Below are positions 1,095-11,843 of a stretch of 18,525 nt of DNA, piece after piece. The stretch is from Methanobacteriota archaeon (GTDB taxonomy: Archaea; JAADCQ01; Methanopyri; Methanopyrales; Methanopyraceae): positions 1-18,525 of the forward strand of contig JBDOKE010000060.1 of assembly GCA_039833815.1 (NCBI GenBank), written 5' to 3'. A program made the position numbers and the translations under genes. Every line of letters starts with the position of its first letter. Position 1 is the stretch's first letter. The notes below the pieces were generated by a model. It searched no databases and was not told the DNA's origin. It worked only from the letters and a program-made list of their open reading frames with translations.

Positions 1095-2813
1095 GTGAGC
1101 GAGCTGGAGGAACTGAGGAAGGTGATCCGCCGGTACGCGCTGGAGAATGCGGCCAAGTACGACGGCCGGGCGAACCCGAACGCGGTCATGAAGAAGGTGA
1201 TGCGGGAGCACGAGGAGTACCGGGATCGGGCCAAGGAGGTGCTCCGGCTCGTTCGCGAGGTGGTCGAGGAGGTCAACCGGATGTCCCTGGAGGAGATCCG
1301 TCGGGAGCTGGAGGAGCTGGGTGGGATGGAGGAGGAGCGGGCGGAGGAGGAGGGCGGCCTGAAGCCGCTGCCCGGGGCCCGGGAGGGCGAGGTCCGGCTG
1401 CGGTTCGCTCCCAACCCGTCGGGACCGCTGCACCTGGGTCACGCGCGGGCGGCGGTGCTCAACGACGAGTACGCCCGCCGGTACGACGGCGCGCTGATCC
1501 TACGGTTCGAGGACACGGACCCGCGGCGGGTGGATCCGGAGGCGTACGACATGATCGAGGAGGACCTGGAGTGGCTGGGCGTGCGGGTGGACGAGCGGTA
1601 CGTGCAGTCGAACCGGATGGAGCTGTACTACCGGGTGGCGGAGGAGCTGCTGGAGCGGGGCGGGGCGTACGTCTGCACGTGCGACGCGGACGAGTTCCGC
1701 CGGCTGCGGGACCGGGGCCAGGCCTGCCCGTGCCGGTCCCGGGATCCGGAGGAGAACCTGGAGCTGTGGGAGGAGATGCTGGATGGGGCGTTCTCGGAGG
1801 GAGAGGCGGTCGTTCGGGTGAAGACGCGGGTCGATCATCCGGATCCGGCCGCGCGGGAGTGGGTCGCGTTCCGGATCGTGGAGCGGCGGCACCCGATGGT
1901 GGGCGACCGGTACCTCGTCTGGCCGACGATGAACTTCGCGGTGGCCGTGGACGATCACTTCATGGAGGTCACGCACGTCCTGCGAGGGAAGGATCACGAG
2001 TCGAACACGCGCCGGCAGGAGTTCGTGTTTCGGCACCTGGACTGGGAGCCGCCGGAGTACGTGCACTACGGGATCCTGAAGGTGGAGGGGACCGTGCTGA
2101 GCACGTCCAGGATCCGGGAGGGGATCGAGTCCGGCGAGTTCACGGGCTGGGACGACGTGCGGACGGCAACGCTGCGAGCGCTGCGGCGGCGGGGGATCGA
2201 GCCCGAGGCACTCCGGGAGACGATCCTGGAGATCGGGCTGACGGAGGTGGACGCGACCTTCAGCTGGGAGCAGCTGTACGCGCGCAACCGGCGGCTCATC
2301 GACCCCAGGTCCAACCGGTACTTCTTCGTCCGGGATCCGGTGGAGCTGTGGATCGAAGGCCTGGAGGAGCCGTTCGCGGCCACGCTGCCGCTGCACCCGG
2401 ACGAGGACCGGGGCGAGCGGGCGCTCGTGCTGCACCCGGAGGACGGCGGTTGCCGGGTCTGGCTGGACCGGGAGGACGGGGAGGCGCTGGAGGAGGGCGC
2501 GCTGATCCGGCTGATGAACGCGGTGAACGTGAGGATCGAGGAGGTGGGTGAGGACGTCGTGCGGGGCCGGTACGAGGGGGAGGACTACCGGACCGCGCGG
2601 CGGGAGGGGGCCAGGATCGTGCACTGGGTGCCGACGGACCAGGCGATCCCGTGCCGGGTGCTGCGACCGGACGGGTCGGTGGACGAGGGCTACGTGGAGG
2701 CGAACGTGGAGCGGGAGGAGCCGGGGAGCACCGTGCAGTTCGAGCGGCTGTACTTCGCCCGGATCGAGGAGTGTCGACCGAGCGGTGTGAGGGCCGTGTA
2801 TGCGCACGACTGA
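1095..2813 (+). CDS. gltX: Glutamyl-tRNA synthetase (archaeal/eukaryal type)
   Basis: The ORF frame runs 1002-2813. It carries a class I HIGH motif (PNPSGPLHLGHARAA), LSTSR in the KMSKS position, WPTMNFAVAVDDH and HVLRGKDH blocks, and a C-terminal anticodon-binding barrel region. I place the start at GTG 1095 (VSELEELRKVIRRYALENAAKY), which matches the usual archaeal GluRS N-terminus and follows GGAGGGTG. ATG 1002 would add a 31-aa low-complexity extension, so the start remains uncertain. Confidence 0.9.
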   Translation: MSELEELRKVIRRYALENAAKYDGRANPNAVMKKVMREHEEYRDRAKEVLRLVREVVEEVNRMSLEEIRRELEELGGMEEERAEEEGGLKPLPGAREGEVRLRFAPNPSGPLHLGHARAAVLNDEYARRYDGALILRFEDTDPRRVDPEAYDMIEEDLEWLGVRVDERYVQSNRMELYYRVAEELLERGGAYVCTCDADEFRRLRDRGQACPCRSRDPEENLELWEEMLDGAFSEGEAVVRVKTRVDHPDPAAREWVAFRIVERRHPMVGDRYLVWPTMNFAVAVDDHFMEVTHVLRGKDHESNTRRQEFVFRHLDWEPPEYVHYGILKVEGTVLSTSRIREGIESGEFTGWDDVRTATLRALRRRGIEPEALRETILEIGLTEVDATFSWEQLYARNRRLIDPRSNRYFFVRDPVELWIEGLEEPFAATLPLHPDEDRGERALVLHPEDGGCRVWLDREDGEALEEGALIRLMNAVNVRIEEVGEDVVRGRYEGEDYRTARREGARIVHWVPTDQAIPCRVLRPDGSVDEGYVEANVEREEPGSTVQFERLYFARIEECRPSGVRAVYAHD

Positions 2814-3819
2814 CACCAGCAATCCGGCGTGCGTGGCCCTCTCCGGCGGTCGGGACAGCGTGGCCACGGCCCTGCACGCGTCCGAGCGCTGGCGGGTGGA
2901 GGCGGCGGTCACGGTCGTGCACGAGTTCCTGGACGAGACGTGCCTGGAGAACGCTCGGCGGTGCGCGGAGCGGCTGGGGCTGCGGCACGAGCTCGTTCGG
3001 GTGCGCCTGCGGGGGTGGTTCCGCCGCGCCCTGCGCCGCGGCCTGCCCATCTGCACCAAGTGCGCTCGGACGGTGCTGACCGCCGCCTGCCTGCGGGCCA
3101 AGCGCCGGGGGCTGCTCACGGTCCTCACGGGCCACGAGCTGAAGGGGAAGTACGGGCGTCGGGTGGCGCACCCGTACCCGCCCGGTGTGACGATGGTCCG
3201 GTACCCGGCGCTGCGCCGGTGGACGTGGGAGGACGTGGACGAGATCGTCTCGGGCCTGAGCTGGTTCGACGAGGGGTACACGTGCCCCATCCGGCCCTAC
3301 GGGGTGCACCGGTTCATCGAGCGGGTCGGGTACAACCCGCTCACGGGCCGCGCCTGCTCGCTGATGGTGGAGCGCGTGGCCTCGCCGCGGGCGTGCCTGG
3401 AGTACCTGGTTGAGACGGAGACCCCGGAGTGGGATGCGGGGAAGGTGGAGGAGCGGCTGGGGCTGGAGCTGCGCCGGGTGTTCGAGGGCGGGGTGCCGGA
3501 GGGCCCGAGGGACGAGGGGGAGATCGTGCGCGATCTCACGTACCGGCTGCTGATGTTCCTGGAGCGGGCGCTGCGGTCGTACCTGAGCGGGACGCTGAAC
3601 CGGATCGTGCGGACGGAGCGGTTCGCGCAGCTGTACGCGGTGCTCCACGAGTACTCCGGGCTCGACGATCGGGTCGACGATTTAGGGTACGAGTCCCTGC
3701 CCCGGCTCGCCGTGGGGCGGGATGAGGGGGCGGCCCGGAGGCTCCTGAAGGAGACGCGGGCGCTGATGCGGGAGCTGTTGCGTGAGTACGGTCGGGAGAT
3801 CCCGGGGACGCGGGTCTGA
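2800..3819 (+). CDS. PP-loop (N-type) ATP pyrophosphatase superfamily protein with a C-terminal helical domain of unknown function
   Basis: SGGRDS PP-loop motif at aa 15-20 (nt 2842-2859). It is followed by CTKC (Cys85/Cys88, nt 3052-3063) and ...LTVLTGHELKG, resembling the CxxC...GH..D arrangement of the TilS/TtcA-type PP-loop enzymes. ATG 2800 overlaps the gltX stop by 14 nt. The last ~140 aa are acidic and helical with no motif I recognise. Confidence 0.75.
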   Translation: MRTTDTSNPACVALSGGRDSVATALHASERWRVEAAVTVVHEFLDETCLENARRCAERLGLRHELVRVRLRGWFRRALRRGLPICTKCARTVLTAACLRAKRRGLLTVLTGHELKGKYGRRVAHPYPPGVTMVRYPALRRWTWEDVDEIVSGLSWFDEGYTCPIRPYGVHRFIERVGYNPLTGRACSLMVERVASPRACLEYLVETETPEWDAGKVEERLGLELRRVFEGGVPEGPRDEGEIVRDLTYRLLMFLERALRSYLSGTLNRIVRTERFAQLYAVLHEYSGLDDRVDDLGYESLPRLAVGRDEGAARRLLKETRALMRELLREYGREIPGTRV

Positions 3820-3824
3820 GGGGG

Positions 3825-10726: not shown

Positions 10727-10727
10727 C

Positions 10728-11843
10728 TTGTACCTGGTACCGCACAACACGGGCGAGGCGCTGGCGGACTTCCTACTGATGACCCACACCGTGGTCCCAC
10801 TCACGCTGGCCTACTCCAGCGTGACCATCCAGCGCGTGCTGTCCCTGTCCATTCTCATCCTGGCCGTCCTGATGCTGATGTTCTTCGTGGACATGCTGTC
10901 GCTGTTCCTACCCCTACCCAGGCACGAGTTCACGCACCCGTTCGGACCACTAACCCTCGCCGCGTGGGCCTCGGCCCGGTACCTGATCGGCCTGCTGGAG
11001 GCGCGCGGAATCTCGGCGGCCCGCCGGACTCGGCCGGTGCTGAACACGCTCTGGCTGTTCACCGGGATCTTCGGGGGCGTGATGCACAGGGATTACCTGC
11101 TCTCCTGGTTGCTCTGCTGGGTCGGGACCGAGTACCTGATCTCGCAGCAGCTGGAGGTGGGAACGAGGATCGGGGCCATCGCCGCGCGCGCGGGCCGGGT
11201 GAGTCGGCGGGTGATCGCCGCGATCTCCGCGATTGGGGTGGGACTCCTGCTGCTGATGGAGGCGGCGGCGCGGGCGTTGAACAAGCCGGTGCTCAGCCCG
11301 GTGCTGCGGGTGAAGCGGTTCGCGGAGTACACCGTGCCGGGCCTGGATTTCATTCGCAAGAACGCGTACCTGGTGGGTCACTCCACCAAGTCCCTTCCGG
11401 CTGGTTACCACTGGTGCGGGTTCGGGGACGGGTTCGTGACGCTGCCCGTAGGGTACCTGGTCATGTTCAACCTGAACGTGCCCACGCTGCACGGCTCGCT
11501 GGTCACGCGGAAGGACCTGCTGGACTACATGCTTCCGGGCGTGTTCGTTTGGGCGTTCGACTTCGGGTACGTGGGCGCGCTCCTGCTGTCGCTCTGGATC
11601 GGGGTCACGCTGTACGTGGGGTCGAGGTGCCTGTCGGAGTACGTGGGGCGTCGGCGGTACGAGTTCTCCTCCGAGCTGGCGGCCCGGGAGGCCCTGCTGT
11701 TCGGGTGCCTGATGGCGTTCTCCATCCAGTCCCTGATCGGCGCCTTCCTGTTCTCGCGGGCGATGAACTCCTTCGCGCTGGCCACCTTCACCCTGCTGTC
11801 GTCCCTGATCTGGGGGCACGTGATCGCGCGGTACCGGGTTTAG
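10728..11843 (+). CDS. Polytopic (~10 TM) integral membrane protein, SEDS (FtsW/RodA)- or Wzy/O-antigen-ligase-like pattern (hypothetical)
   Basis: About ten hydrophobic segments with a ~70-aa loop after TM6. The segment [35 protein letters not shown]...[21 protein letters not shown] resembles the LPExHTDFIFAxxGEELGxxG...Q block of SEDS proteins and the analogous block of Wzy_C proteins. The SEDS SYGGSS motif is absent. TTG 10728 lies 1 nt after the upstream TAA; ATG 10779 is an alternative start. Confidence 0.75.

Follow-up and report, generated by a model that had tools for sequence, protein, structure and literature searches.

What is encoded by eight genes that run head to tail on the plus strand of a GC-rich archaeal contig, and how far does it reach from the synthesis of a cell-wall precursor toward the assembly of the wall? 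The question is raised by positions 2800-11843 of contig JBDOKE010000060.1 (NCBI GenBank assembly GCA_039833815.1, Methanobacteriota archaeon), of which the whole stretch that was analysed (18,525 nt) is hereafter called the window; the eight genes are designated g1 to g8 in their order. A first-pass annotation, made from the sequence of the window, had proposed a dcw-like, translationally coupled operon for a candidate complete system of pseudomurein precursor synthesis, lipid linking and wall assembly. We put at about 0.9 the probability that the block is the known pseudomurein cluster as it occurs in Methanopyrales, with roles of the envelope proteins as proposed below from structural models. 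Subedi et al. 2021 (PMC10117817) had named this cluster 'Gene Cluster 2', and Lupo et al. 2025 (PMC11915815) 'cluster A'. Thus, the novelty implied by the first-pass annotation did not hold: the cluster is already published and has dedicated NCBIfam models and crystal structures; with two comparative-genomics papers and the first enzymology at hand, it is textbook-level for specialists. What is new, as not found in the literature searched, is a set of fold-level hypotheses for the families of g6, g7 and g8 (Mfer763, Mfer764 and OG0000796).

The pseudomurein cluster and its source lineage

The eight genes, with the overlaps and gaps that had been reported between them, were found in the open reading frame (ORF) list of the window. 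The upstream gltX overlaps g1 by 14 nt, and g1 is separated from g2 by 5 nt; overlaps of 4 nt (g2/g3), 1 nt (g3/g4), 4 nt (g4/g5; the overlap reads GTGA, and the start codon of g5 is the GTG at 7578) and 26 nt (g5/g6) follow, and then gaps of 7 nt (g6/g7) and 1 nt (g7/g8). The starts of g5 (7578) and g6 (9031) are backed by end-to-end alignment to NCBIfam models. The G+C content of the window is ~70% and long spurious ORFs occur in every frame; family support marks out the eight genes from them. The arrangement is not due to chance among ORFs of GC-rich DNA, because five other Methanopyrales genomes or contigs show the genes in this order and as tightly spaced (53-97% amino acid identity). The 3' end of g8 reaches 4 nt into a convergent DUF555 gene; therefore, the run of genes stops at g8.

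Six of the eight genes (g2-g7) match pseudomurein-specific NCBIfam models end to end, and the contiguous genes for the ATP-grasp protein, the MraY-like protein, pMurE, Mfer763 and Mfer764 are all five named by NCBIfam in that order. According to Subedi et al. 2021 (PMC10117817), Gene Cluster 2 always has Mfer760 (ATP-grasp), Mfer761 (MraY), Mfer762 (pMurE), Mfer763 and Mfer764, and sometimes also holds pMurC or pMurD1; Mfer763 and Mfer764 were described there as conserved membrane-associated proteins without assigned function. Lupo et al. 2025 (PMC11915815) recovered the cluster and added the polytopic protein OG0000796, specific to pseudomurein archaea, whose gene in Methanopyrus sp. KOL6 comes right after that of the Mfer764 orthologue. 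The assignment of the block to pseudomurein biosynthesis, and to the Methanopyrales, was accordingly borne out by NCBIfam models and orthology.

Two Mur-type ligases are encoded in the cytoplasmic half, as had been proposed, and the P-loop, DxxHNP and MraY-type motifs read from the sequence are all present in the translations. The product of g2 (3825..5363, plus strand), which had been called MurD-like, is instead the orthologue of pMurC, a MurC/D-type pseudomurein peptide ligase: it scores 609.8 bits against the NCBIfam pMurC model (NF053645; cut-off, 560) over model positions 2-492 of 492, and its best match in the PDB is, at full length, 6vr7 (Mfer336 of Methanothermus fervidus; E = 1.3e-81). 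Its motifs are the P-loop GGTNGKTTT and DYGHNP. The product of g5 (7578..9056, plus strand), with the P-loop GTNGKSTT and DFCHNP, matches the pMurE model (NF053648) from end to end (1-464 of 464; E = 1.3e-167; 558.3 bits; cut-off, 600). This score is ~470 bits above the next family (murC, 95.5 bits; the pMurC paralogue, 88.8 bits), the PDB matches are 7tzi (E = 1.7e-114) and 6vr8/7jt8 (Mfer762; E = 7.6e-105), and the gene is positionally orthologous to pMurE of the other loci. Mur_ligase_M and Mur_ligase_C are both above the Pfam gathering scores in g2 and g5, and bacterial MurC/D/E/F, cyanophycin synthetase and FolC are far behind the pseudomurein ligases as matches.

The remaining two genes of this half also match their NCBIfam and Pfam families. 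The single-module ATP-grasp protein g3 (5360..6499, plus strand) belongs to Ddl_archaea, the 'smallest carbamoyl-phosphate synthetase' family (NCBIfam, E = 7.2e-97, 324.6 bits, cut-off 500; Pfam ATP-grasp_3, PF02655, E = 2.4e-13, 50.9 bits, threshold 23.2). The archaeal MraY-like polyprenyl-phosphate phospho-sugar(-peptide) transferase g4 (6499..7581, plus strand) matches MraY_archaea (E = 7.4e-130; 433.2 bits; cut-off, 450) and Pfam Glycos_transf_4 (PF00953; E = 2.7e-34), and its translation contains VVDD, NAVNLIDGMDGL (NxxNxxDGxDGL), GDTGS and HHH. The first-pass view that most steps lack enzymology is outdated, as assays for pMurC and pMurE were published in 2026: PMurC is reported to add Ala or Thr to UDP-Glu, and PMurE to add Lys next (Cha et al. 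2026; PMC12996149).

The system in the window is not complete, contrary to the first-pass proposal. None of pMurD1, pMurD2, the cluster of the MobA-like NTP transferase and Mfer335, the sugar-nucleotide steps, a MurG-like protein, UppS/UppP and a flippase was found in the window; these parts, including the MobA-like NTP transferase ("PMurB") and its partner, are placed elsewhere in the genome by published work (PMC10117817, PMC11915815, PMC12996149). In one Methanopyrales lineage (L081/L082, 1-472), outside the window, a gene for an UppS-type cis-prenyltransferase (Pfam Prenyltransf) precedes gltX by ~8 kb and has the same orientation, and a lipid-carrier synthase, as judged by this domain match, is in the wider neighbourhood there.

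Gene for gene, the window is colinear with Methanopyrus kandleri AV19 (AE009439.1, 700703-721953), from which it differs in G+C content (70% versus 60%) and in protein sequence (65-82% amino acid identity). The wall of M. kandleri AV19 consists of pseudomurein, and we infer from the colinearity that the host of the window produces pseudomurein as well. The proteins are 94-99% identical to those of contig JAMOPY010000023.1, from a metagenome-assembled genome (MAG), except for the RimB-like gene, the least conserved one in this comparison (88% over a less reliably delimited ORF); a second MAG is 70-95% identical to the window, and the arrangement from the arginyl-tRNA synthetase (ArgRS) gene through HemC is shared by two further Methanopyrales lineages (L081/L082 and L083). 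These comparisons indicate that the source is a distinct, uncultured and much more GC-rich Methanopyrales lineage, a relative of M. kandleri.

The scan of genome loci listed 80 loci and is not a complete census: the AV19 locus is absent from it, although the Mfer764 orthologue there has 77% identity and fits the search pattern, and the locus was recovered by a separate search for encoding contigs. The core order g3-g4-g5-(g2)-g6-g7 is kept in at least 78 Methanobacteriales loci, near whose core cluster g1 and g8 are absent, and the full order is kept in Methanopyrales. Among the matches listed, the accessory genes were found only in Methanobacteriales and Methanopyrales, to which all named homologues of g7 and g8 and all 80 genome loci belong; the first-pass annotation's own refuting check, on accessory genes equally common in archaea that lack pseudomurein, thus did not refute the reading. 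A contig labelled 'Methanomicrobiales archaeon' (JBNGDB010000017.1) carries the pseudomurein cluster; it shows 75% DNA identity over 18 kb to a Methanobacteriaceae MAG and has the same G+C content (32%), and it is likely to be a mislabelled or contaminated bin rather than a case of pseudomurein genes outside the known orders.

The three envelope proteins

The precursor genes are followed by three envelope genes, as had been described, and this arrangement in Methanopyrales is the best genomic argument for their joint action. In the published view these envelope proteins have no homologues, and equivalents of transglycosylases and transpeptidases are absent (PMC10117817).

The product of g6 (9031..9450, plus strand) is a member of the Mfer763 family (NCBIfam Mfer763_fam; E = 7e-47; 159 bits; cut-off, 170), with a membrane anchor or signal sequence at the N-terminus and then a single putative POTRA-like domain (~100 amino acids), and its gene is always directly upstream of g7 in the compared loci. 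A profile built from a 23-sequence alignment (from the fetched loci) was searched against all PDB sequences at E<=10, and it matched three chains only, all of them BamA POTRA (best, 6j09_A; E = 2.7e-4). The alignment with 9cx4_A extends over columns 43-124, and one alignment covers a whole POTRA unit. In the Pfam scan of the 23 Mfer763 members (E<=10), POTRA matched one (E = 0.049) and POTRA_1/FtsQ matched none. A POTRA-like domain in g6, as first proposed, is plausible on the profile matches.

The product of g7 (9458..10726, plus strand) matches the NCBIfam model Mfer764_fam (E = 2e-159; 530.7 bits; cut-off, 560). It was modelled with AlphaFold2 from a 34-sequence alignment (predicted local distance difference test score, pLDDT, 83). 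The predicted layout is a signal peptide (AxA|T) and an alpha-beta-beta-alpha domain from Thr24, then an insert like a degenerate Zn ribbon and a further alpha/beta domain, and a transmembrane anchor at the C-terminus; the first strand is formed by residues 23-30, with Thr24 at its start. All full-length homologues keep T24 and N26, and the hydrophobic leader ends with A-x-A right before Thr24. When the model was compared with the PDB by Foldseek, the eight best matches were to circularly permuted human taspase-1 (E = 4e-6 to 4e-5; probability, 1.0), and further ones were to bile-salt hydrolase, EgtC, proteasome beta, and plant and human asparaginase. The permuted taspase is an informative match, as that construct begins with the subunit that bears the nucleophile. 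We infer that g7 would be an exported, C-terminally anchored enzyme of the N-terminal nucleophile (Ntn) type, whose nucleophile is unmasked by signal peptidase. The g7 profile had no match among PDB sequences, and no relatives of g7 outside pseudomurein archaea were seen among the named homologues. DUF1028, which the first-pass annotation had listed for a profile check without tying it to a gene, did not match g7; the protein still models as the Ntn-hydrolase fold, that of the superfamily of DUF1028. The insert at residues 250-282 (window ~10205-10303) is Zn-ribbon-like, with CxxC...CxxC in Methanopyrales; many Methanobacteriales have Asp or Gly at two of the four Cys positions, and C254 and C272 are the only invariant ones. 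The insert may represent a metal site that is degenerating or else a disulfide of an exported protein.

The product of g8 (10728..11843, plus strand) is, by its sequence, OG0000796 of Lupo et al. 2025; its homologues are 58-69% identical ("Methanopyrus sp.") or ~35% identical (Methanobacterium). An AlphaFold2 model was obtained from a 30-sequence alignment (pLDDT, 80.6; predicted template modelling score, 0.82). Hydropathy and the model give ~9-10 transmembrane helices, and a large conserved loop (residues 185-280) is opposite to the Arg/Lys-rich loops, that is, predicted to be outside the cell. This loop holds the conserved residues R194, R197, H218, K262-D263, D266 and D278 (invariant Asp, Arg and His). 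In Foldseek against the PDB, the top matches were FtsW of Pseudomonas aeruginosa (8p1u_A), the O-antigen ligase WaaL (7tpg_B) and again FtsW of P. aeruginosa (8bh1_A), with probabilities of 0.99, 0.99 and 0.94 and template modelling (TM) scores of 0.37-0.43; all other matches had probabilities of 0.23 or less and TM-scores of 0.2 or less (the next one, 0.23 and 0.17). The first-pass reading of g8 as SEDS/Wzy-like thus finds some support in the SEDS/WaaL-like fold of the model, at a weak level, as does the POTRA-like domain of g6 in the BamA matches. In a greedy, non-significant hhalign alignment with a 3-sequence SEDS alignment, g8 is colinear over 281 columns, with K262-D263 on the catalytic Thr-Asp and AFDFGYxG on EELGxxG; we treat this coincidence of motifs as a lead only. 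The sole match of the g8 profile to PDB sequences, ND4L, was rejected as spurious.

In Methanobacterium, the g8 orthologue directly follows a gene for a DUF1002 exported protein (loci L092-L094, 5950-14200), and it lies ~4 kb from the sortase/RcpC-CpaB/DUF515 genes of 'cluster C' of Lupo et al. 2025, which is specific to pseudomurein archaea. The region of DUF1002, g8 and cluster C could be a second envelope neighbourhood there.

A course of events may be drawn from these assignments. By orthology and the published assays, pMurC and pMurE extend a UDP-activated Glu peptide, with Ala or Thr and then Lys according to those assays, and the MraY-like g4 transfers the phospho-sugar-peptide to a polyprenyl phosphate carrier; the ATP-grasp protein g3 would perform an ATP-dependent activation or ligation step. 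After flipping, g8 might polymerise or ligate the lipid-diphosphate-linked unit on the outer face, as suggested by its model. The product of g7 would be a membrane-tethered Ntn-type amidase or transpeptidase, its catalytic Thr exposed by removal of the signal peptide; an acyl-enzyme formed by this Thr1 on the stem peptide could lead to cross-linking (transpeptidation, as by gamma-glutamyltranspeptidase) or to trimming. The membrane-anchored POTRA-like g6 could act as an adaptor in a role comparable to that of FtsQ. The first gene, g1, is coupled to the others by position and may serve gltX or tRNA biology rather than the wall. A stronger claim would be that g6, g7 and g8 form an extracellular pseudomurein synthase laid out analogously to SEDS-transpeptidase-FtsQ, with a POTRA adaptor, an Ntn transpeptidase and a SEDS/WaaL-like polymerase, in which isopeptide cross-linking by g7 would resemble gamma-glutamyltranspeptidase and not a penicillin-binding protein (PBP) or a transglutaminase; we regard this as possible but unlikely. 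The fold-level leads single out residues, namely Thr24 of Mfer764 and D263, D266 and D278 of the polytopic protein, and enzymes of extracellular pseudomurein polymerisation and cross-linking would be targets for inhibitors specific to rumen and gut methanogens.

Alternative readings and the PP-loop gene

A number of points weigh against the reading given above. Against the curated NCBIfam cut-offs, only pMurC is above its value among g2-g7, and the other five of the six matches are below, mostly narrowly; by sequence, these scores are a mark of a divergent lineage. On which ligase adds which residue, the literature is in conflict: in contrast to the assays of Cha et al. 2026, the structural comparison in the Lupo 2022 preprint suggested recognition of L-Ala by the pMurE type (Mur-delta) and of L-Lys by the pMurC type (Mur-alpha). 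For g7, Foldseek also matched PP2C phosphatases, which have the same four-layer sandwich; cleavage of a signal peptide is a prediction from the sequence, and the predictor used by Lupo et al. 2025 (PMC11915815) called none in the Mfer764-type protein; and no sequence link to Ntn families, including DUF1028, was found among 34 family members (Pfam, E<=10). For g8, the fold match is weak (Foldseek E ~0.04; TM-score ~0.42). The profile checks named by the first-pass annotation (FTSW_RODA_SPOVE, Wzy_C and POTRA_1) were essentially empty at E<=10 across the family members: FTSW_RODA_SPOVE (PF01098) had no match in 30 members of the g8 family, and Wzy_C_2 matched one of the 30 (E = 0.03). An exhaustive hidden Markov model search with the g8 profile among 1.84 billion representatives returned its own small family only (62 matches, mostly fragments), and hhalign of g8 with E. 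coli FtsW, RodA and WaaL and with the SEDS alignment was not significant (probability, ~0.1). The g8 orthologue is not adjacent to the cluster in Methanobacteriales.

The envelope proteins might also be wall-associated and yet be neither polymerase, transpeptidase nor scaffold, with cross-linking performed by exported transglutaminases, g7 acting as a hydrolase (an autolysin, or a trimming or recycling amidase) and g8 as a transporter, a flippase or a ligase that would link the wall to another polymer or to the S-layer. Transglutaminases are favoured for cross-linking by Leahy 2010, Subedi 2021 and Lupo 2025, which also weighs against the roles that we propose; Ntn enzymes are mostly hydrolases, WaaL, whose fold match to g8 is as weak as that of FtsW, is a ligase and not a polymerase, and g8 is unlinked from the cluster in Methanobacteriales. 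On the other hand, no other candidate for the glycan polymerase has been identified in these organisms in the literature, g6 and g7 are invariably joined to the precursor-synthesis operon in the compared loci, and g8 is specific to pseudomurein archaea. We judge this alternative to fall somewhat short of even odds. Very improbable, in our estimate, is an origin of the Mur-type ligases in a pathway other than the wall (folylpolyglutamate, poly-gamma-glutamate/CapB, cyanophycin or the F430 synthase CfbE), which would make the cluster unrelated to pseudomurein. Those families share the Mur ligase fold and appear as weak matches, but pMurC and pMurE score 610 and 558 bits versus 34-88 bits for FolC, cyanophycin synthetase and CfbE, the best PDB matches are pseudomurein ligases, an MraY-type gene is the neighbour, and the taxa are restricted to the pseudomurein orders. 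In the grouping check proposed by the first-pass annotation, g2 and g5 likewise grouped with pMurC and pMurE (E = 1e-81 and 1e-105), far from FolC, CapB and cyanophycin synthetase. These three and CfbE were rejected as identities of g2 and g5 on bit scores and PDB matches.

The membership of g1 (2800..3819, plus strand; 339 amino acids) has to be weighed separately from the pseudomurein reading of the other genes. It encodes a putative orphan PP-loop ATP pyrophosphatase with the motifs ALSGGRDS, PICTKC and TGHE; the PP-loop ALSGG(K/R)DS is invariant among the homologues, in which PxCTKC and TGHE are present. These homologues form 8 clusters, all Methanopyrus-like, and a metagenome scan for distant relatives returned Methanopyrales contigs only; g1 is always between gltX and pMurC in the Methanopyrales loci compared. 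Every match of g1 to QueC, LarE, Asn_synthase and DUF7411 (Pfam/NCBIfam) was under its cut-off. The best match of the g1 profile in the PDB was the tRNA sulfurtransferase TtuA (PH0300; E = 0.016), with the central 106 residues aligned and the PP-loop, CxxC and TGH spanned. It is its position that would place g1 in the wall system, and position cannot assign it there, because the neighbourhood is colinear across the order and the Methanobacteriales make pseudomurein without g1; a role linked to gltX or tRNA is at least as likely as a role in the wall. In the corresponding alternative, g1 is not a wall gene; it would encode an adenylating enzyme of TtuA/Ncs6-like type, specific to the lineage, which thiolates or has some other role with tRNA or a cofactor, it would travel with gltX and the neighbouring tRNA-Lys(UUU), and the functional wall operon would have seven genes. 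The match to TtuA, including the CxxC motif of Fe-S ligands, is in its favour, as are the overlap with gltX (14 nt here, 8-29 nt in relatives), the position of tRNA-Lys(UUU) 165 nt upstream of the gltX ORF, and the absence of g1 from all Methanobacteriales examined. Yet all matches are weak (E = 0.004-0.07), the zinc fingers of TtuA are lacking, the gene is equally tightly joined to pMurC (5-nt gap here; 4-nt overlap in L081), and synteny cannot tell the two readings apart as the neighbourhood is colinear across the order. We consider the chances evenly balanced.

Flanking genes and comparison with known systems

The upstream flank consists of housekeeping genes (ArgRS, tRNA-Lys(UUU) and gltX). 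The archaeal Glu-tRNA synthetase gene gltX (1002..2813, plus strand; Pfam tRNA-synt_1c, E = 8.8e-83) is possibly the first gene of the same transcript as g1-g8. Its ORF from the ATG at 1002 encodes 603 amino acids; the actual start is probably a GTG near 1097 (VSELEELR...), which is preferred because the orthologues have 571-572 amino acids. The tRNA-Lys(UUU) gene (759-836, minus strand), between ArgRS and gltX, was the sole match in the Rfam scan of the window. At 860-915, in otherwise 70%-GC DNA, an AT-rich TATAAAAA box is seen at ~866-873 on the minus strand, ~30 nt upstream of tRNA-Lys, and a second box, TTAAAT, faces gltX at ~907-912. The TATAAAAA and TTAAAT boxes are candidate divergent archaeal promoters, and the TTAAAT box may drive gltX together with g1-g8.

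Downstream, the genes for DUF555, tetrapyrrole methylase, HemC, the RimB-like protein, NAD kinase, an inositol-monophosphatase-like protein, PvlArgDC and aIF5A are found. The inositol-monophosphatase-family protein (16352-17374, minus strand) has a C-terminal segment like the nucleotide pyrophosphohydrolase MazG (Pfam MazG, E = 2.9e-5, residues 278-324), perhaps an unusual fusion, and its ORF and that of the NAD kinase overlap. The ORF at 13904-15490 (minus strand) encodes 528 amino acids with a C-terminal RimB-like/Zn_protease domain; its AV19 orthologue has only 284 amino acids, and the long N-terminal extension is probably an artefact of ORF calling in high-GC DNA.

Compared with Gene Cluster 2/cluster A, the window has the same families with their order unchanged, it contains pMurC like some of the published cluster types, and OG0000796 adjoins as in Methanopyrus sp. 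KOL6; a difference is the PP-loop gene between gltX and pMurC, which is not discussed in those papers. With the [4Fe-4S] tRNA sulfurtransferases TtuA/Ncs6, g1 shares SGGxDS, a PxCxxC aligned to the Fe-S ligands of TtuA, and TGH. It differs from them in that their pattern of flanking zinc fingers plus CxxC...C was not found, the g1 termini having no zinc-finger region at the N- or C-terminal end, in that E is just 0.016, in that its C-terminal half (~170 amino acids) is unique, and in its restriction to Methanopyrales. With Ntn hydrolases (taspase-1/type-2 asparaginase, gamma-glutamyltranspeptidase, proteasome beta and bile-salt hydrolase), g7 shares a predicted alpha-beta-beta-alpha core and, at the first position of strand 1, a Thr as putative nucleophile, whereas its N-terminus would come from signal peptidase and not from autoproteolysis, its domain order fits circularly permuted taspase without membership in a sequence family, and it has extra Zn-ribbon-like and C-terminal domains and a transmembrane anchor.

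The likeness to the bacterial dcw cluster, noticed in the first-pass annotation for both gene content and gene order, stood for content and not for order, as stated by Subedi et al. 2021 (PMC10117817). Shared with this cluster and with the FtsW-FtsI-FtsQLB and RodA-PBP2 synthase complexes are Mur ligases, an ATP-grasp protein of Ddl-like type, MraY and tight packing in one direction, and also shared would be a SEDS-like polytopic protein (g8, by predicted fold only) and a membrane-anchored POTRA-like protein comparable to FtsQ (g6). In the window the genes run pMurC, ATP-grasp, MraY, pMurE, POTRA-like, Ntn-like and SEDS-like, and that of the bacterial cluster (murE-murF-mraY-murD-ftsW-murG-murC-ddl-ftsQAZ) is not kept; MurF, MurG, FtsL, FtsI, FtsA and FtsZ have no counterpart here, and g8 has no detectable sequence homology to bacterial SEDS proteins. 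Where the bacterial FtsI/PBP2 complexes have a PBP transpeptidase, the Ntn-fold g7 is in that place, and the substrates differ as well, with L-amino acids added to a UDP-Glu primer and a glycan that contains talosaminuronic acid.

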